The notes beneath the pieces were generated by a model. That model was not told the origin of the DNA, searched no databases, and was given only the letters and a program-made list of their open reading frames with translations. The position numbers and the translations under genes were made by a program. Positions 1-6,961 of a stretch of DNA of 6,961 bases are shown piece by piece. The stretch is from a virus. Taxonomy: Duplodnaviria > Heunggongvirae > Uroviricota > Caudoviricetes. The DNA is taken from positions 1-6,961 of the IMG/VR virus record IMGVR_UViG_2744054675_000005. The stretch is one strand, 5' to 3'. How positions within the stretch are numbered: the first letter of the stretch is position 1; each line of letters opens with the position of its first letter.

Positions 1-1108
1 CCAGTTGCAGGGAAGAGTATCTGCTATAAGAAAAATCACATACGTAATACCCTTCTGGCATATATGCAGCAACACTTTCCTCATCAGGAGCACATCCGGT
101 ATGATATGCACTAATTTTTGCACCAAAGCTACCATGAATTCCAACGTAGAACTTTCGAGCACCTGAATACGGATAGAAATTAAGTTCAGCTTTTTGAGTT
201 ACAATAAATGCACAAACATCGCTATCATCTCTATTTTCTTCAATCTGAATAGCAAATACAGGACTTTTTGCTGCATCGCAAATGTAAAATAAATATTTGT
301 ATTCGTAATACGTCCTAACAGTTTTAGTAAACAAACTGGTATCAGAGAAAACCACTGAGTCTTCTGATATTATTTTAATCCATGATAAGTCACATCCTGC
401 TGAAATTTCTATTTGCTCATTGAGCACAAAACCGGAAAGAATTTTAATTATGCAAAAATCAATGCCATTTTTCCATAGTGGACGCAGTGCAACAGCTGAG
501 TTTAGAGCATCACTAATAGATTTAAAATTACCATATTCCCCAACTGTTATTGTGAATGCATACCTGGAATTAAATACTGCGGCACTCTCTCCAGAGTTAA
601 TAGCTGCAGATATCATGTCATAATTTGATATAAAATCATTTGGCGTGATTATTTCTGCGTTTTTATTGTGCTGTGTTCTAAGTTTTGAATTTACATAAAC
701 ACTTTTAACTGCAATACGGGAGTCGTCAACAAGTATTTCATTACCCTCTGTTGCTAACTCTTGTCTTAACTGATCCGGGTCATACTTCAGCACATTCGGA
801 AAATAGAACTGCTGCACACCGTACGCATCATAAACAGCCATAGAATGGCCCTGTACAGTAACGAATTTGGCAATCTGTCCGTTATATACCGGATATCCAG
901 CAGCGTTAATGATGATTGGTTGCGAAACAGGAACGTGAGATCCATCTTCGTTCTCTACATAAACCTGAATCTGGTTTTCAGGATTTACCGGGTCAGTGTC
1001 AATTTTACCGATATAAATTTTGCCATTAGCTACGGCTTTAAAAGAACGCGCCATAGTGAAGAGTTGCGAAGGCATCGATACGATCACATTGGCTGTAATG
1101 TCTGTCAT
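1..1108 (-). CDS. Tailspike protein, 5' portion (3' end lies beyond the window start). Conserved P22-type N-terminal head-binding domain followed by a divergent receptor-binding domain.
   Basis: Hand translation of the minus strand from ATG at 1108..1106 gives [113 protein letters not shown]..., which closely matches the P22 gp9 N-terminus as I recall it ([11 protein letters not shown]...[34 protein letters not shown]...[12 protein letters not shown]...NVLKYDPDQ). I scanned this frame triplet by triplet and found no stop codon from 1108 down to position 2. SD GGAG lies 8 nt upstream (complement of 1117..1120). Not in the ORF track, presumably because its stop is outside the window. Confidence 0.85.
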
Positions 1109-1165
1109 TTAATTTGCTCCAGATACAAGGAATCGCCGCAGCATGGCTACGGTGAATTTTGGGCA

Positions 1166-1190
1166 TAAAAAAACCCAGCCGAAGCTGGGT
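1166..1190 (-). terminator. Rho-independent terminator downstream of ant
   Basis: Minus-strand RNA reads ACCCAGC-UUCG-GCUGGGU followed by UUUUUUU: a 7-bp GC-rich stem (1173..1179 with 1184..1190), a UUCG tetraloop, and a U7 tract (plus-strand A run 1166..1172). It lies between the ant stop (1209) and the tailspike start (1108). Confidence 0.7.
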
Positions 1191-1208
1191 CGTTGCGTTG
1201 GTTATCTG

Positions 1209-2111
1209 TCAGTAGTTATGTGCTGAAGGAGGTAATTCTTTATTCTTAAGTCTCATCCATGCGGAAAGATTCGTTGGTCCGTCTGGCTCATTAATATCAA
1301 CATCTCGTGTGTGGTTTATTAAAACGTCTCTCGCCATTCCGATAACATACGAGAATTCATGACCGTAGTCGTAGCATCTGCCGGAATAGTTCGATTGAAT
1401 TTGTTTTAATGCCGGATACAGTTCGCGGAATAATGCCTGTGAACGGTTAGCATAATCCCATAGCCATACAAGGCTGTTTGCTTCTTTTGCAGAAAGCTCG
1501 TTGGTTTTCTTCTCTTGTTTGCCAATGAGCTCACCTTCAAGCACTACCCTGTGGATGTACTCTACTGCTTGCGGTATCTGAGATGCATCAAGCTCTTCAA
1601 TACTTTCCACATTGAAACGCTGATGAATCATTGCATAAGCTTCTGGGTACATTAGATGCTTTTTGCTGACCAGCATATTTACAGCATCACGAAGCGGAGT
1701 CCTGTCATCAACAGATGTTTTCTTACGTGCATTTTCTTCCTTTCCCTTTGTCCAGTAGTCATGCAGCACAGTAAAGCATTCTTCCTGGTACTGAATAAGT
1801 TTATCGCGGATGTCAGCACGAACTTTCTCAGGGTTGATGCTGAACAGCCATCCATTTAACTTCTTCAAAGGAAGGCAGAGTAGCTTACGAAGCTTCCCAT
1901 CAGCGGCAACCATGTTCATATGAACACAGTTGAATTTGCTAATCTGCTTCATGAGTTTTGTTTGCTGCGTTGACCAGCTCATTCCAAGGTTTTCAACGAT
2001 TGGCTTCATCGCAACATATGCAACTCCGGCAGCCATGGCGGTGATAATTTGCTGACCGTTGAATGGTACGTAAGAGGTGTTCACTGCTTCTAAAATTGCT
2101 ATACTATTCAT
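1209..2111 (-). CDS. ant: Antirepressor Ant (300 aa)
   Basis: The ORF track lists 1209..2141, but position 2141 is a TTG. The ATG at 2111..2109 has SD GGAGA (complement of 2121..2125) 9 nt upstream and gives exactly 300 aa beginning [53 protein letters not shown]..., which matches my recollection of P22 Ant (length and N-terminus). The position arc -> ant -> tailspike reproduces P22 immI synteny. Confidence 0.9.
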
Positions 2112-2185
2112 GTTGGTTTTTCTCCAAGGATTTACCGACAACCGAAGCCCTGACTGTTACCGCAGTTGGGGCTTCAACTTTTCAC
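2112..2185 (+). ncRNA. Candidate sar-like antisense RNA covering the ant ribosome-binding site
   Basis: A -10-like TATACT at 2100..2105 (inside the first codons of ant, plus strand) would start a transcript near 2112 that is antisense to the ant SD (2121..2125). It would end at a hairpin (gaagccc 2144..2150 pairs with gggcttc 2169..2175, with an inner actg/cagt stem) followed by the U-rich run aacttttcacttcttt. Size (about 70 nt) and position mirror P22 sar. The -35 is weak (tgttca 2078..2083). Confidence 0.35.
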
Positions 2186-2398
2186 TTCTTTAAAGTGCCT
2201 ACCTTCTACAGTTGCTCTGAGATAAAAATTCTTATCTTTACCGTTTAGTGCTTCCCAAGCATCAACAATGCACTTATTACAGATGTGGACTTCTCGATAA
2301 CCAATAGCTTTCCTGTCAATATTAGTGAACATAACAGCTTCTTTATCTGTCAATGTGGATGCATGACAGAAGTCGCAATCTATATAAGATACCTTCAT
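2174..2398 (-). CDS. Small Cys4 zinc-ribbon protein (74 aa) inserted between arc and ant
   Basis: ORF MKVSYIDCDFCHASTLTDKEAVMFTNIDRKAIGYREVHICNKCIVDAWEALNGKDKNFYLRATVEGRHFKEVKS carries two CxxC pairs (C8/C11 and C40/C43). Its ATG (2398..2396) overlaps the arc stop codon (GTATGA), with a G-rich SD-like stretch (GAGAGGGG) just upstream inside the 3' end of arc. Same strand and operon as arc and ant. Confidence 0.55.
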   Translation of the reverse strand: MKVSYIDCDFCHASTLTDKEAVMFTNIDRKAIGYREVHICNKCIVDAWEALNGKDKNFYLRATVEGRHFKEVKS

Positions 2399-2553
2399 AC
2401 CGTTATCCCCTCTCTCTTCAGGCTGTCCAACACTCGCTTGTAAATCTCAGAGTTAACAGATCGCCCGTTCTCTTCAGCTACCTTGCGCACCAAATCCAAT
2501 ACTTCTTTAGGCCACCGCAAATTGAACTGAGGCATTTTTCTTGCACCTTGCAT
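2395..2553 (-). CDS. arc: Arc repressor (52 aa, ribbon-helix-helix)
   Basis: Hand translation of the minus strand gives MQGARKMPQFNLRWPKEVLDLVRKVAEENGRSVNSEIYKRVLDSLKREGITV, near-identical to P22 Arc as I recall it (MKGMSKMPQFNLRWPREVLDLVRKVAEENGRSVNSEIYQRV...), including the DNA-contacting strand PQFNLRW. SD GGAG sits 6 nt upstream of ATG 2553. Missing from the ORF track because it is shorter than 61 aa. An in-frame upstream ATG at 2574 (MSEMELN-) has no SD and no counterpart in P22 Arc. Confidence 0.85.
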   Translation of the reverse strand: MQGARKMPQFNLRWPKEVLDLVRKVAEENGRSVNSEIYKRVLDSLKREGITV

Positions 2554-2577
2554 ATTCAACTCCATTTCACTCATTGA

Positions 2578-2590
2578 TAGTACCGTACTA
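2578..2590. promoter_or_regulatory. Perfect 13-bp palindrome TAGTAC-C-GTACTA; candidate Mnt-type operator at the Pant start site
   Basis: Positions 2578..2590 form a perfect inverted repeat around a central C. The core ACGGT (read on the minus strand) is shared with the centre of the P22 Mnt operator AGGTCCACGGTGGACCT as I recall it. It sits just downstream of the predicted Pant -10 and just upstream of the predicted Pmnt -35, the arrangement expected for an operator that represses Pant and autoregulates Pmnt. Confidence 0.5.
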
Positions 2591-2593
2591 CTA

Positions 2594-2622
2594 TTGAAAG
2601 CGTACTACTACCGTTCTAGCAT
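2594..2622 (+). promoter_or_regulatory. Candidate Pmnt promoter (-35 TTGAAA, 17-bp spacer, -10 TAGCAT)
   Basis: TTGAAA at 2594..2599 and TAGCAT at 2617..2622, followed by SD AAGGAG (2635..2640) and the GTG start of mnt at 2647. The spacer contains the second copy of the CGTACTACTA repeat (2601..2610; first copy 2584..2593). Confidence 0.4.
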
Positions 2623-2627
2623 GTCAA
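2599..2627 (-). promoter_or_regulatory. Candidate Pant promoter (-35 TTGACA; weak -10 TACGCT), overlapping and divergent from Pmnt
   Basis: The minus strand reads TTGACA (complement of 2622..2627), a 17-bp spacer, then TACGCT (complement of 2599..2604). The consensus -35 matches the P22 Pant layout TTGACA-operator-(-10). The -10 is a poor match, so the exact start site is uncertain. Confidence 0.4.
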
Positions 2628-2646
2628 CAAATAAAAGGAGAACGAC

Positions 2647-2889
2647 GTGGCTAGAAATGATCCACAATTCAACGTAAGAATGCCTGATGAGATAAAACAG
2701 CAACTTACGCATATTGCTGCAACAAATCGCCGCTCGATAAACGCAGAGATTATTTCAGCTATCGAACTATGGATAAAAATTCATAAAGGGCAGCTAATAC
2801 CTTCAAGTAGTCGAATCCTGACAAAGTCTGAGCAAGAGGCGTTTGATGTAGCTATTGATGTGTTAAAACGTGTAAGAGATGGAGGATAA
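2647..2889 (+). CDS. mnt: Mnt-like repressor (80 aa, ribbon-helix-helix, maintenance-of-lysogeny type)
   Basis: GTG start with SD AAGGAG 6 nt upstream. The protein MARNDPQFNVRMPDEIKQQLTHIAATNRRSINAEIISAIELWIKIHKGQL... resembles P22 Mnt (MARDDPHFNFRMPMEVREKL...ANGRSMNSELL...) as I recall it. Divergent from arc across a short shared control region, as in P22. Confidence 0.85.
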   Translation: MARNDPQFNVRMPDEIKQQLTHIAATNRRSINAEIISAIELWIKIHKGQLIPSSSRILTKSEQEAFDVAIDVLKRVRDGG

Positions 2890-2891
2890 CC

Positions 2892-3125
2892 ATGGAGCAA
2901 CAACAAGGGTCGCCATTATCATTGATTATTATGGTGATTTTTTTCGTTTTTATCTTTTTTATACCTGCGTTAAAAATATCCAAAAAGGCCGGTTTTGACT
3001 GGAAGATGGCTGTATGTTTAACAATCCCTGGCTTTAACGTGGTGGCGTGGCTCGCGCTTGCGTTCATGGATTGGCCAATTCACAAGTATCTACCAAAAGA
3101 TGTGAATCGTAAGGATGCAAAATGA
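2892..3125 (+). CDS. Small two-helix inner-membrane protein (77 aa), translationally coupled to mnt; function unknown, superinfection-exclusion candidate
   Basis: ATG at 2892 lies 2 nt after the mnt stop codon, with SD GGAGGA (2881..2886) inside the 3' end of mnt. The protein MEQQQGSPLSLIIMVIFFVFIFFIPALKISKKAGFDWKMAVCLTIPGFNVVAWLALAFMDWPIHKYLPKDVNRKDAK has two hydrophobic segments separated by a short basic loop. The region is AT-rich. Confidence 0.6.
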   Translation: MEQQQGSPLSLIIMVIFFVFIFFIPALKISKKAGFDWKMAVCLTIPGFNVVAWLALAFMDWPIHKYLPKDVNRKDAK

Positions 3126-3331
3126 ATAAAAAACAGCTTATTAAGTCAAAAACGTCAAGCAAGGAAGAATTAGAGAAGGAGCTAAACTCCCTGAAATATG
3201 CTCTGTGTCTGGTTTACTCAAGACTGCCAATGGAAGATAAAAACGCCATTTACAATGAAATGATTAGCAGCCTTGATTTTAACGATAGAGACCTAGCATC
3301 CCACCTCAACAGCTTCCGCGTCCCTGAGTAA
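3122..3331 (+). CDS. Hypothetical protein (69 aa), translationally coupled to the upstream membrane-protein gene
   Basis: Its ATG overlaps the upstream stop (ATGA at 3122..3125), with SD AAGGA about 7 nt upstream. The protein MNKKQLIKSKTSSKEELEKELNSLKYALCLVYSRLPMEDKNAIYNEMISSLDFNDRDLASHLNSFRVPE is charged and predicted helical. I recognise no family. Confidence 0.5.
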   Translation: MNKKQLIKSKTSSKEELEKELNSLKYALCLVYSRLPMEDKNAIYNEMISSLDFNDRDLASHLNSFRVPE

Positions 3332-3491
3332 TTCTGTTGCGGATTTGCTTCTTGCGGTGGTTTAAGCTGGAGAGCTTGGCTTCTGCTTCTGATATTTGCG
3401 CATCTAGATCTTTAAGCTCAAGATCTGAAAGTCGCTGGTCAAGCAGGGTTTGATTCAACTCAATGTTGTTCAGGCGTTCTTCTATGGTCAT
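3306..3491 (-). CDS. Hypothetical coiled-coil protein (61 aa), convergent with and overlapping the 3' end of the 69-aa ORF
   Basis: Strong SD on the minus strand (TAAGGAG, then 5 nt, then ATG at 3491..3489). The protein MTIEERLNNIELNQTLLDQRLSDLELKDLDAQISEAEAKLSSLNHRKKQIRNRITQGRGSC has a heptad-like Leu/Ile pattern. Its 3' end overlaps 3122..3331 by 26 nt on the opposite strand. Its start is only about 15 nt downstream of the terminator hairpin, so it has no obvious promoter of its own. Confidence 0.4.
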   Translation of the reverse strand: MTIEERLNNIELNQTLLDQRLSDLELKDLDAQISEAEAKLSSLNHRKKQIRNRITQGRGSC

Positions 3492-3504
3492 GATTTCTCC
3501 TTAT

Positions 3505-3536
3505 AAAAAACCCACCTGACGGTGGGTTTCATTTCT
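3505..3536. terminator. Bidirectional rho-independent terminator between the lipoprotein gene and the mnt-side accessory genes
   Basis: Stem cccacc (3511..3516) pairs with ggtggg (3521..3526) around loop tgac, extendable to 9 bp by A/T pairs. On the minus strand it is followed by UUUUUU-AU; on the plus strand by UUUCAUUUCUU. Confidence 0.65.
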
Positions 3537-3955
3537 TAATCTTGCTTCGTGGAAGGTATAAGAGATGCGTTTGCCTCTTTTGGCTTCAAGGTATACATCC
3601 CACCATTAAATGGATCAACAGCAAGCCAACCAATTAACCCACCAAACACAAGGTTTCCACCAATATACCAACCATTAGCATTGGCTTTGATTGGCAGGGT
3701 AACTGGTTCGTACCCATCCTTTTCCATAGTGATCTGGTAGCTCTTTTTGCCAAAATAACTACCATCTGACTTGGCAAGAGTTACTCCTTGTGGAGTTTTA
3801 CCTTGCGCAACAATCACACCTGATTCATCTTTTACCTTAAAGCTCGCACCAGAAGGATTGCTGTTCACTTGCACAAGTTGCGTTTCATCACCAACAATAG
3901 TTGCGCACCCAGATAACATGATAGCGCCAGCAACGACGCTAATAATCCTCTTCAT
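3536..3955 (-). CDS. Lipoprotein (139 aa from MKRIIS; the alternative ATG at 3967 adds MEID) with a PEGA-like beta domain and a Gly-rich C-terminal segment; sits in the sieA-equivalent position
   Basis: Signal peptide with lipobox MKRIISVVAGAIMLSG|C. The mature part SNPSGASFKVKDESGVIVAQGKTPQGVTL...YQITMEKDGYEPVTLPI fits the PEGA-domain pattern (P-x-G-A ... G-x-TP ... K-x-GY). C-terminal GWYIGGNLVFGGLIGWLAVDPFNGGMY. Located directly downstream of the large ejection-protein gene on the same strand. Confidence 0.8.
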   Translation of the reverse strand: MKRIISVVAGAIMLSGCATIVGDETQLVQVNSNPSGASFKVKDESGVIVAQGKTPQGVTLAKSDGSYFGKKSYQITMEKDGYEPVTLPIKANANGWYIGGNLVFGGLIGWLAVDPFNGGMYTLKPKEANASLIPSTKQD

Positions 3956-4050
3956 ATCAATTTCCATATCTAAAAAACCGGAAACATCCTAATGACAAAC
4001 TATTCAAATGTGAAGCACGAGATAAGATCAATCCATCCGTGGACGACTAA

Positions 4051-6162
4051 TTACTCCTGTGTCATTCCGCTTAGCGATGCCACAATCCCAGCCCTCGACA
4101 AACGCTGGAACTCTTCGTTTCCTAGTGCATCGCGAATTGCTTTTACGGCGGCCTTATTTGCCATAAATCTGCGTTCCGCCGCCGCTAATGCTTCTTTACT
4201 TCCGCCAGCTCTTACTGCTTTCGTGGCTTCCTGAACTGCTTTCTCTATCGCATATCGGCCGCTACGCGTGGTGGCAATTTTAGATACAGCACCTTTTAAC
4301 CCGGCGCCAACTAAAGCACCTGCGGCAGCGCCTGCAATGCCCCCTCCTGCTCCACCAACAATGGCACCTGATGTTGAGTTGGCAATTGCATTTAACACTG
4401 TTGATGTGACGTTGGATAAACCGGCATCCAGATCGCGTAGTACATTGGCAGTTCTCCCTGTTCTTTCAATATACTGCTGAGGTTTCACTGCTGCTCTTGC
4501 AAGAGTGCCATATGCATCAGCAATTCTTCCGAGTTCTGAGGAATATCTGCTAATGGCTTTTACATTTTGTGGGGTAAGTATCCCTGCGATATGGTTAATT
4601 CCTGCTGCATCAGCTTTGCCACCACGTACACCATGCGAGATAGCATCTTGCAACATTGATGATATAGCAGGAACACGCTCTGATTCTGGCAGCGCGCGGA
4701 TCATAGAATGGAACCCAGCAGGACCATTAAGACCTTTAGCTGACGATGATTGAAGGGATTTTACTCCATTCGTAATCAGTGCATCTGTTGCCAAATCACG
4801 CCCGAAAACAGACTCTGCACTCTCTTGTGCTGATAACCTCGCTTTAGACAGATCATTAGCTTTCTGCCAGTCATCAAGAAATCCGCCGTTTTCCGCCATT
4901 GTGCGCATATCATCAGTAATTGCCCGGCGTATTTCCCCTGCTCTCCTTGCCGCATTTGCCTCTCCGCTACGCTTATATTTTTGCTCCGCATCAGCAAATT
5001 TCGCTCTCCATGCTTTCATGCCATCAAATGTTACTCCACCTTGATTGTTTGCCTGAACAAACTGTTTCATTTCAGGAGTAAGCGGTATGCCAGCAGATCG
5101 CTCTGCCTGAATAACGGCATTACCATTTAGCATTCTTGCTTTTTGATTTGGCATTGTTGACCGCACGTCATCCCATGCCGCGCGCTCGGCATCCTTCATC
5201 TGATCAAGATTTTGAAGAATCCTTTGTTTTATAGCCGCACTTTTTTCTGATGCCGTTCCAGATGCGGCCCCAAATTCATCAAGGTTTCGACTTAACTTTG
5301 ATGATATTTCGTTAAATGCTGCCTGATGGGCGTCCTGAACAATTCCTGGTGTTGATGCCAATGCGCCTTCGGCTTGTGCAATTCCACGACTTCCAGATCG
5401 CATTCCTGGTGTTAATGCGTTTATATCAATTCCAGCAGACTCAGCCGCTTTTGCTACATCTTCGGACACATTAGCGGCCTGACTGGCAATTGACTGACGC
5501 CCAGCACCTGACTTTGCCATCCTGGAAACATCATTAGCAGAATTCAGTGCTGCACCACCAAGAGCCTGTGAAACCCTTGGCGCAATAACGCGCCCGACAC
5601 CTGAAAGAACGCCTTGAGCACCAATATTGATACCACCGTTAATGGCAGCATTTTGTGCAAAGTCGCCCTCCTGATTTGCAGCATCAGCAAGAGAACCTGC
5701 AATCATGTTTCCTGCGGAACCGATATCTCCAGCGAGCTTTGCTGGCGCTCCAGCAGCTTTTGCCGCTGTGCCAATTGGCAGGAGATACCCACCAATTGTT
5801 TCACCGGCTTGCGCATAAGGGTCTGTCGGTCGATCGACTGGACGATAGACATCATCCAAAACCTTGGGGCCACCAAGCCCCTGGCTGATTGCATTAATCA
5901 GACTTGCGCCACCCTGCAATACGTCAAATGGTATGTTTACCAGACCACGGCCAGCCTGTTCTGCAATTTGCCCTGCGCTTTGACCACCAGTGAGCCAGTC
6001 AGTGGCTTTTCCTACCAGAGATTGTTCTTCTGGCTGCGATTGGTTTTGAGTGGATTGATCACCAGAAGACAGCATCTGAGCAATGCGACGTGCTCCCTCA
6101 GTATCACCGGCAGCATCAGCATTCCTTAACGCCGTCATCAACTGTTCGCGACTATAGGCCAT
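4051..6162 (-). CDS. Virion ejection (DNA-transfer) protein, P22 gp16-like by position (703 aa)
   Basis: Long GC-rich ORF with SD GGAGGG. Its start is coupled to the upstream ORF through a TAATG stop/start overlap at 6160..6164. It is the last large gene before the sieA/mnt region, which is where gene 16 sits in P22. The protein is Ala/Gly/Gln-rich and has a glycine-zipper-like hydrophobic stretch [27 protein letters not shown] (about 4288..4368). Function is assigned by synteny and composition only. Confidence 0.7.
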
Positions 6163-6961
6163 TACTGCCCTCCGAGATATTTATTAATCAGGTCATCATC
6201 AGAAAGCTGCTGTTGAGACGGTTGTATGTCCTTCCCGTATTTCTGTTGCATACGTTTCTGAGCCATCTCAGTGGTTTTTATGATTGTTTTGATAGCTGCT
6301 CTGGCTGATTTTTCAGACTGATTTGGGGACAAACTACCAATAGCATCCATTACCTTTTGCCCCTCGGCATTACTTAAAGCCCCCATCCCTTTCATCTGCT
6401 GAATGCCAGATAAGAATCCCTGAGATTTCAGTGTGTCAACCAGAGTTTCTGTATCAGCAGCCTCTGTTCCTGGAATGAATCTACTCGATAGTGGGTTTAG
6501 GTTTGTTCCGAAATATCCAGTGAATCCTGGGCTATTAAGAACTTTTGTAGCCGTCTCTATCGTTCTGGAAAGATTATCCATTCCAGAGTTGTACGCATCA
6601 GCCTTATCTCGCTTTGCCTGCTCCATAGCTTGCTGATTCTGCAATCTCTTGTCATGCAATTCAGCAAGTTTTAAGGCATTAGTTTCATTTGCGATGAGTC
6701 TGTCGTATTTCTTGTCCTCTAATTCCATTCGACGAAGATTGACATTTTGTTGCGCAATATTGTTGCTTGCCCACCCTCTGGCATTTGTCATGTCATTATT
6801 GCGGATTGTTTCGTTAATTCTTTGCTGCTCCTGCTGGCGACCAACCATCTTATCCTGATAATCCAGCATTTTATCCGGACCAACAGCCCCTAGCGTCATA
6901 GTAGTCAGCATGTGTGATAGCTGCTCTGGATTCTGGATACCTGTCTGAATCATCCAGTCAG
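6162..6961 (-). CDS. Virion ejection protein, P22 gp20-like by position (C-terminal portion; 5' end beyond the window)
   Basis: The reading frame stays open to the window edge (codons upstream of the listed Met at 6953 are not stops). Gln/Asn-rich with coiled-coil-like segments; the stop overlaps the start of the 703-aa gene. Assigned by synteny only. Confidence 0.6.

Follow-up and report, generated by a model that had tools for sequence, protein, structure and literature searches.

A variant of the P22 immI switch with altered predicted operators for Arc and a Mnt homologue

Arc and Mnt serve as models of how beta-sheets recognise DNA. Homologues of both are encoded, divergently, in the DNA analysed here. 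This is a stretch of 6,961 nucleotides from a virus of the Caudoviricetes (IMG/VR virus record IMGVR_UViG_2744054675_000005, positions 1 to 6,961), and we refer to the whole of it as the window. The window contains a P22-type immI module, with ant, the sar RNA, arc and a divergent mnt homologue. The original prediction for this locus, made from the letters of the DNA, raised a puzzle. It stated that the DNA-reading strand of Arc, PQFNLRW, is identical to that of P22 Arc, and this was confirmed by alignment. It also reported that a P22-type operator, TAGA-N5-TCTA, could not be found. The absence holds: in the intergenic region between arc and mnt, nothing matches this motif with one mismatch or fewer, and the P22 arc operator 21-mer has no match anywhere in the window with three mismatches or fewer. 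What, then, might the two repressors read? The explanation that we consider best, with a probability of roughly 0.7, is a P22-type bidirectional switch, in which one predicted operator (site 1) is for the Mnt homologue and another (site 2) is for Arc. Judged by its sequence, the region is the known immI switch, in the form of an uncharacterised specificity variant. The elements of the control region are as follows.

2574 to 2594, no strand assigned: site 1, 21 base pairs (bp), core at 2578-2590 and centre at 2584, the proposed operator of the Mnt homologue
2584 to 2593, plus strand: copy 1 of the direct repeat, CGTACTACTA; forms the left half-site of site 1 when the minus strand is read
2594 to 2599, plus strand: predicted Pmnt -35 element, TTGAAA, from a promoter scan; homologous to P22 TTGAGA
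2599 to 2604, minus strand: predicted Pant -10 element, TACGCT, 17 bp from TTGACA; aligns with P22 TATATT
2601 to 2610, plus strand: copy 2 of the direct repeat, CGTACTACTA; forms the right half-site of site 2 when the minus strand is read
2602 to 2622, no strand assigned: site 2, 21 bp, centre at 2612, proposed as the operator of Arc and perhaps also a weak second site for Mnt
2617 to 2622, plus strand: predicted Pmnt -10 element, TAGCAT, from the promoter scan; homologous to P22 TATCAT
2622 to 2627, minus strand: predicted Pant -35 element, TTGACA (TGTCAA on the plus strand), invariant in all aligned immI types

The two promoters are predicted to be of the sigma-70 type, to face each other, and to have a single 17-bp spacer in common. 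Pant would direct transcription of arc, a 74-amino-acid (aa) open reading frame (ORF) and ant, while Pmnt would direct transcription of the mnt homologue. The promoter scan listed TTGAAA-17-TAGCAT on the plus strand, at 2594-2622, with 9/12 consensus matches. Both -35 hexamers, TTGACA on the minus strand and TTGAAA on the plus strand, are where the original prediction placed them. The overlap that it described for divergent Pant and Pmnt was also found: each -35 element shares 1 bp with the opposite -10 element. Note that the register is that of the annotated P22 promoters. In GenBank X01916, Pant has its -35 element at 302-307 and its -10 element at 325-330, and Pmnt has its -10 element at 307-312 and its -35 element at 330-335.

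Alignment with P22 immI, which had been suggested as a check, was gapless. The minus strand of the window (TTGACATGCTAGAACGGTAGTAGTACGCTTTCAATAGTAGTACGGTACTATCA) can be laid against P22 (TTGACATGATAGAAGCACTCTACTATATTCTCAATAGGTCCACGGTGGACCTG) from TTGACA up to and including the Pant-start operator, and this 54-bp block has no indels and 30/54 identical positions. No canonical arc operator was revealed. It had been proposed that operator specificity or architecture may differ from P22. The operator sequences do differ but, since the alignment is gapless and the register the same, the architecture does not. At the Arc-operator position, in the Pant spacer, there is no pair of TAGA boxes in inverted orientation with 5 bp between them. 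Instead, the minus strand reads TAGA-ACGGT-AGTA (2618 to 2606), in which the left box alone is kept; this had been overlooked. At the Pant start there is a symmetric element of 13 bp, in the same register as in P22 and with the ACGGT centre. Its arms are different and the 21-mers agree at 9/21 positions. The block is also conserved. Between the Pant -35 element and the centre of site 1, the window and an N7-like locus (L064) are identical at 46/46 positions, while their flanks on the mnt side are identical at 119/150 (79%). We take the finding to be real and functional.

The most conspicuous element is a perfect 13-bp palindrome, TAGTACCGTACTA (TAGTAC-C-GTACTA, 2578-2590), in which a central C is flanked by arms of 6 bp. 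It is present as first described, and so are both copies of CGTACTACTA, which are 17 bp apart from start to start. A second, imperfect 13-mer had been missed. This sequence, TACTACCGTTCTA, is at 2606-2618, 28 bp away, and is identical to the palindrome at 11/13 positions. With three mismatches or fewer allowed, the window has no match besides this pair. As a test of chance, the intergenic region, of 93 bp, was dinucleotide-shuffled 5000 times. Palindromes with 6-bp arms number five in the window, and at least one occurs in 4.8% of the shuffles. Hence, the palindrome alone was rejected as a significant feature. A 10-bp direct repeat within 40 bp was found in 0.1% of shuffles, and palindrome and repeat together in 0/5000. 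The significance of the region rests on the repeat, on conservation and on comparison with other loci, rather than on the palindrome by itself.

The direct repeat had been described as an element of its own. We read it as a by-product, formed by adjoining half-sites of two operators, because its copies would both be half-sites, the right one of site 2 and the left one of site 1, and because close relatives lack it. The repeat is absent from L077, L111 and type C (the third type listed below), all of which keep both operators. Furthermore, the dyads of the two CGTACTACTA half-sites, 17 bp apart, are out of helical phase. One other repeat spans the region. It is inverted, of 10 nucleotides and 90% complementary, with arms at 2530-2539 and 2676-2685 that are 136 nucleotides apart. 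As a regulatory element this was rejected, since it corresponds to homologous K/R-M-P codons of the paralogues arc and mnt.

Site 1 covers approximately +1 to +19 of Pant, relative to the predicted transcription start, and is upstream of the Pmnt -35 element. It has two inverted half-sites (ATAGT-AGTAC on the minus strand and, from the opposite end, TTGAT-AGTAC), with local dyads 11 bp apart. In extended form the inverted repeat has 13-nucleotide arms that are 77% complementary. Site 1 is in register with the P22 Mnt operator, AGGTCCACGGTGGACCT, and the ACGGT centre is invariant. The position of that operator, at the Pant start, is reported in the Sauer laboratory literature; its sequence is visible in the P22 record. 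We then turned to other loci, about 200 of which form the base of the comparison. They were gathered via Arc (n=80 and n=119), and further loci were gathered via the Mnt homologue. Scanning genome contigs with the Mnt homologue yielded 3 loci only, and scans of viral contigs were far more informative. Among related phage loci where the Arc strand is constant (PQFNLRW), the site at +1 varies with the Mnt strand, as listed here.

Mnt strand PHFNFR: +1 site GGTCCAC-S-GTGGACC, in P22 and a second type
Mnt strand PQFNVR: +1 site TAGTAC-S-GT[A/G]CTA, in the window and its relatives
Mnt strand PQFKLR: +1 site GAACCAC-S-GTGGTTC, in a third type, with an Arc N-terminus as in the window

This covariation, of site type with Mnt strand type, is apparent in types A-D, in Brenneria, in Acinetobacter and at other loci. 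In Brenneria, Acinetobacter and several contigs of uncultured phages, TAGTAC-S-GTACTA recurs exactly beside PQFN[V/L]R proteins. At the loci where the palindrome recurs, the partners have unrelated strands (PQTNLRI, PPTSIRL and TQMAVRI). More widely, sites with an AC-S-GT core are found within 130 bp upstream at 72/75 distinct Mnt-like loci, with two or three sites in 68; by our estimate, chance would supply ~0.25 per locus. The arms of these sites are specific to the strand type. We conclude that the palindrome most likely serves as operator for the Mnt homologue, and not for Arc, since it has the Mnt-operator position and tracks the Mnt strand whatever the partner. If an altered Arc operator is sought, the palindrome is not the foremost candidate. 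The original prediction had also missed residue 6 of the Mnt homologue, which is Gln rather than the His of P22 Mnt. In P22, Mnt binding at this position blocks Pant at its start and leaves Pmnt free (PMC11016777).

The wider set of Mnt-like proteins, which begin M[A/S]RxDPQF... and come from numerous hosts, comprises loci L111-L190 and L004-L027. Two or three palindromes nearly always occur in the 130 bp upstream, with an invariant AC-S-GT core and a spacing of 25-28 bp. Their arms vary with strand residues 8 and 9. Thus, PQFKLR is found with G[G/A][A/T]CCAC, PQFRIR with TCACAC or CCCCAC, and PQFNVR with TAGTAC.

Site 2 fills the spacer that Pant and Pmnt have in common. Its core is TACTAC-C-GTTCTA (2606-2618; TAGAAC-G-GTAGTA on the minus strand). 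The site is in register with the P22 arc operator, ATGATAGAAGCACTCTACTAT, with 12/21 identity. Its left half (ATGCTAGAAC on the minus strand) agrees with P22 ATGATAGAAG at 8/10 positions. In P22, the position of the Arc operator, and repression of both promoters by Arc, have been described (PMC2724298), and the record for phage epsilon34 has arcO annotated across the equivalent 29 bp. In structure 1PAR, residues Gln9, Asn11 and Arg13 of two strands read six adjacent bp, which are AGTAGA in one half and, in the second half, GATAGA (PMC12645479). The four half-sites of the window are GCTAGA, AGTAGT, AGTAGT and GATAGT, each of which retains 5/6 of the Arc-contacted bp. Within site 2, the six-base Arc-contact window of the right half is still 11 bp from the left one. 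Types B and C, which have the same Arc N-terminus (MQGARK), different Mnt proteins and different +1 sites, have 16/21 bp of site 2 in common. Since the third type keeps both the Arc N-terminus and these 16 bp despite a different Mnt, Arc is favoured as the reader, and site 2 is most likely the operator of Arc.

A further immI type, consisting of L061, L062 and MKGASK loci, has the P22 Mnt protein and keeps the Mnt operator. Its spacer site is different, being TAGGAC-C-ATGGTA or TAGGA[C/T]-G-ATGCTA. The Arc of these loci differs from P22 Arc outside the strand only (Met4Ala and a few other residues). Hence, an operator at the Arc position can drift even if the reading strand is fixed.

The comparisons above show homology, collinearity, conservation and covariation. 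The pairing of repressors with sites is inferred from position and covariation, and the transcription starts and the effect on regulation are predictions. The proposed working of the switch is as follows. Two ribbon-helix-helix operators would control both promoters, each consisting of two half-sites with local dyads 11 bp apart. In the lysogen, the Mnt homologue bound at site 1 would block arc-ant transcription. Pmnt would be left free and the promoter competition acting on it would be relieved. Conversely, Arc bound at site 2 would shut both promoters, as in P22. Both operators appear to be built from the same Arc-type half-site (R-R-T-A-G-W), placed around an AC-S-GT centre. They would differ from the P22 operators because the proteins differ, with Gln6 in Mnt and Ala4-Arg5 in Arc.

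Several observations weigh against this assignment of proteins and sites. The Pant -10 element is weak, with only 3/6 matches to TATAAT, and Pant is thus unlisted in the scan. The right half of site 2, GTAGTAGTAC, has its TAG box on the same strand, and not inverted, so Arc would need to accept a reversed half-site. Spacer sites with an [A/T]C-G-GT core also lie beside unrelated partner strands (KTSTIRL at L113 and PPTSIRL at L117), and in the wider family a promoter region normally has two or three sites of the Mnt type. Because of such arrays, and of partners that are unlike Arc, site 2 may also, or instead, be a second, weak Mnt site. Arc types with Arg5 all have the AC-G-GT centre and types with Ser5 are all without it. 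Reading of the AC-S-GT centre by Arg5 was nevertheless set aside as a lead only, since it is fully confounded with Mnt type and contradicted by L113 and L117. A literature search returned no paper on this operator variant, and no binding, footprint or transcript data for it. Finally, the 21-mer at 2574-2594 matches the P22 arc operator at 15/21 positions in the reverse orientation, compared with 12/21 for site 2.

This last match, the best to the P22 arc operator in the region, suits a different arrangement. Here, the palindrome would be the Arc operator, as a symmetric TAGT-N5-ACTA version moved to the transcript start, and Mnt would use site 2, or else both sites. The half-sites AGTAGT and GATAGT are indeed the asymmetric P22 pair, AGTAGA and GATAGA, except for the last base, and the Arc strand is the same as in P22. 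We consider the arrangement improbable because, in the gapless alignment, the palindrome is at the Mnt-operator position. In addition, type C has the same Arc N-terminus but a wholly different +1 site, GAACCAC-S-GTGGTTC, that matches other PQFKLR loci, and the exact palindrome adjoins partners with strands unlike that of Arc. Logically, the palindrome and repeats might also have no protein-binding role, and result from chance or from a hairpin in the arc mRNA leader. How commonly 6-bp-arm palindromes arise, in the window and in shuffled DNA, is in keeping with this. The conservation of the block at 46/46 positions against ~79% in the flanks, the failure of any shuffle to contain palindrome and repeat together, and the recurrence of the same site type in distant hosts all oppose it, and we give it very little credence. 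An RNA hairpin in the arc leader was rejected; at -4 kcal/mol, and with a z-score of 0.31, the leader folds no more stably than shuffled controls. The original view of the palindrome and repeats as predicted operator elements is supported.

The remaining alternative, which overlaps with our best explanation, is that the two repressors have targets in common. Mnt would bind tightly at site 1 and weakly at site 2, with negative autoregulation of Pmnt as a result. Arc would bind site 2 and perhaps site 1, and the repressors would be non-orthogonal, unlike those of P22. The recognition segments, ARKMPQFNLRWP in Arc and ARNDPQFNVRMP in Mnt, match at 8/12 residues, compared with 5/12 for the P22 pair, while overall Arc-Mnt similarity is no higher in the window than in P22. 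Likewise, sites 1 and 2 match at 14/21 positions, compared with 6/21 for the P22 operators (our count from the P22 alignment). Arrays of two or three AC-S-GT sites, 25-28 bp apart, are typical of Mnt-like loci, including those with partners that are not Arc-like. We nonetheless rate common targets as possible rather than probable. Neither arm of site 2 (TAGAAC, TACTAC) is the preferred TAGTAC, the P22 repressors are orthogonal, and the likeness between the sites is in part forced by the overlapping promoter hexamers; moreover, the case is one of sequence comparison throughout.

The detail of the recognition segments is relevant here. The Mnt triad Gln6-Asn8-Arg10 equals the Arc triad Gln9-Asn11-Arg13, and the Arc arm, Ala4-Arg5, resembles Mnt Ala1-Arg2. 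For 5/8 of the shared residues, arc and mnt use different codons, and recent gene conversion between the two genes was rejected on this basis. Because the reading residues (the Gln-Asn-Arg strand and the Ala-Arg arm) are common to both proteins, and one half-site is present in both operators, the repressors of the window variant might cross-bind, or compete for, both sites, a tentative prediction that we think rather unlikely to hold. If it did, Mnt would autoregulate via the spacer site and the +1 site would be open to Arc as well. In that case, discrimination would be due to half-site orientation, operator centre and oligomeric architecture, and not to base contacts. The locus would also be a natural counterpart of engineered hybrid repressors, and a test bed for insulation of ribbon-helix-helix paralogues.

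The switch proposed above, with site 1 for the Mnt homologue and site 2 for Arc, is embedded in the following genes.

1209 to 2111, minus strand: ant antirepressor gene, with PF10547 and PF10548 matches
2112 to 2179, plus strand: sar antisense RNA, Rfam RF00262, 97.4 bits against a gathering score of 43
2395 to 2553, minus strand: arc gene, 52 aa (MQGARKMPQFNLRW...), PF03869, 92 bits
2647 to 2889, plus strand: mnt homologue, 80 aa, with a GTG start, AAGGAG at 2635-2640 and a PF03869 match

The ORFs, Pfam and the GenBank annotation of phage Emek all show arc and ant as an operon and mnt as a gene that is transcribed divergently from it. The Pfam search of the window proteins returned the Arc family twice, together with P22_AR_N and P22_AR_C. 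The sar antisense RNA lies opposite the ant ribosome-binding region, and this match confirms the identity of the immI module. The likely start of ant, to judge from ORF translation and the position of sar, is ATG 2111 (MNSIAILE...), which gives a protein of 300 aa. Arc is 82% identical to its P22 counterpart, has Protein Data Bank (PDB) matches to 1arq and 1par, and falls within the ribbon-helix-helix fold with the strand PQFNLRW (Gln9, Asn11 and Arg13; reference structures 1ARR and 1PAR). We assign the true arc start to ATG 2553, because GGAG is present upstream (2563 to 2560) and the length of P22 Arc is matched. A 59-aa Arc ORF, beginning at the in-frame ATG 2574, was rejected since this ATG is absent from relatives L007 and L015-L018. 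Note that the rejected codon falls inside the control region studied here. A recent structure, chain G of PDB 9pio, is of an 'Arc family DNA-binding protein' (79 aa) and scores 81 bits against the Arc of the window.

The best PDB match of the mnt homologue is 1mnt_A (E = 1e-5), and its N-terminal ribbon-helix-helix domain is homologous to Mnt (PDB 1MNT). Identity to P22 Mnt is 45%, over residues 1-40 only, and the alignment detected no similarity to P22 Mnt beyond residue 40. Mnt itself ends in a coiled-coil domain for tetramerisation. In a single-sequence AlphaFold model of the homologue, of too low confidence (mean pLDDT 54) to show whether it has such a domain, a linker is followed by a C-terminal helix at 60-78. 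According to secondary citations, the reading residues of Mnt are Arg2, His6, Asn8 and Arg10. In the homologue residue 6 is Gln (ARNDPQFNVRM) and the other three are kept. RefSeq NC_018275 (phage Emek) and PHROG 2685/795 label the homologue a 'partition protein ATPase'. The label is wrong, since the protein is an 80-aa ribbon-helix-helix repressor.

The 74-aa ORF between arc and ant (2174-2398, minus strand) has a start that overlaps the arc stop codon. It encodes a CxxC...CxxC arrangement, with Cys at 8, 11, 40 and 43, and has only a sub-threshold match to the ClpX zinc finger. No PHROG family was found for it, and no phage DNA match to 2182-2390. Emek and other relatives have unrelated ORFs of ~73 aa in the same slot, and so the arc-ant gap looks like a variable cargo position inside the operon. 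Downstream of mnt, at 2892-3491 and at 3536-3967 (minus strand), there are four small ORFs in PHROG families of unknown function. One of the ORFs there encodes a putative lipoprotein of 143 aa, with a faint match to the Cor superinfection-exclusion family. These ORFs are typical cargo of the variable 'ant moron' region. Over the arc-mnt stretch, identity is 99.8% with Salmonella phage Emek, ~85% with E. coli phage N7, and 100% with prophages in E. coli chromosomes. Among 5426 complete E. coli genomes, 34 have at least 80% of the stretch covered, so at least 34 carry the module.

The P22 version is the only studied form of this variable region (PMC2629481). Together with the related types, the window allele makes up a natural series of joint changes in strand residues, in arm residues and in the arms of the operators. 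Such a series could be used to derive, and to test, a recognition code for the ribbon-helix-helix family. The allele would also predict mutual immunity, or non-immunity, among P22-like phages and prophages at the level of the antirepressor. In addition, the annotation is corrected for the arc start codon and for the 'partition protein ATPase' label of the mnt homologue.

How does the variant compare with known systems? As in P22, mnt is followed by divergent arc and ant, with the sar RNA. The TTGACA -35 element, the 17-bp spacer and the 1-bp overlap of each -35 element with the other -10 element are also alike, as is the placement of one operator in the common spacer and one at the Pant start. 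The operators themselves are different. At +1, TAGTAC-G-GTACTA replaces GGTCCAC-G-GTGGACC of P22. In the spacer, TAGAAC-G-GTAGTA replaces TAGAAG-C-ACTCTA, with a Mnt-like centre and a flipped TAG box in the right half. Furthermore, the window Mnt has Gln6 rather than His6, and a C-terminal half with no detectable similarity to that of P22 Mnt, and the window Arc has Ala4-Arg5 rather than Met4-Ser5. The Pant -10 element (TACGCT) is weaker than in P22, and there is an extra 74-aa ORF between arc and ant.

A second comparison is with engineered Arc/Mnt hybrid repressors, reportedly made by Knight and Sauer in 1989 and by Raumann, Knight and Sauer in 1995 (cited in PMC3413123), and said to show that specificity resides in a short N-terminal segment. 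Like those hybrids, the window has a Mnt-type protein, here a natural one, with an Arc-like segment (A-R-x-x-P-Q-F-N-x-R), beside predicted Arc-like half-sites. Unlike them, the window allele is natural and its binding specificity is predicted from sequence. The region also resembles operators of other ribbon-helix-helix proteins, such as CopG, with a 13-bp symmetric element that has its dyad at a central G:C and overlaps a promoter (PMC2724298). By analogy with those operators, one dimer may occupy each half of the element, inside the promoter (PMC2724298). In contrast to those operators, the box sequences are different, and there are two elements, predicted to serve two paralogous repressors, within 50 bp.

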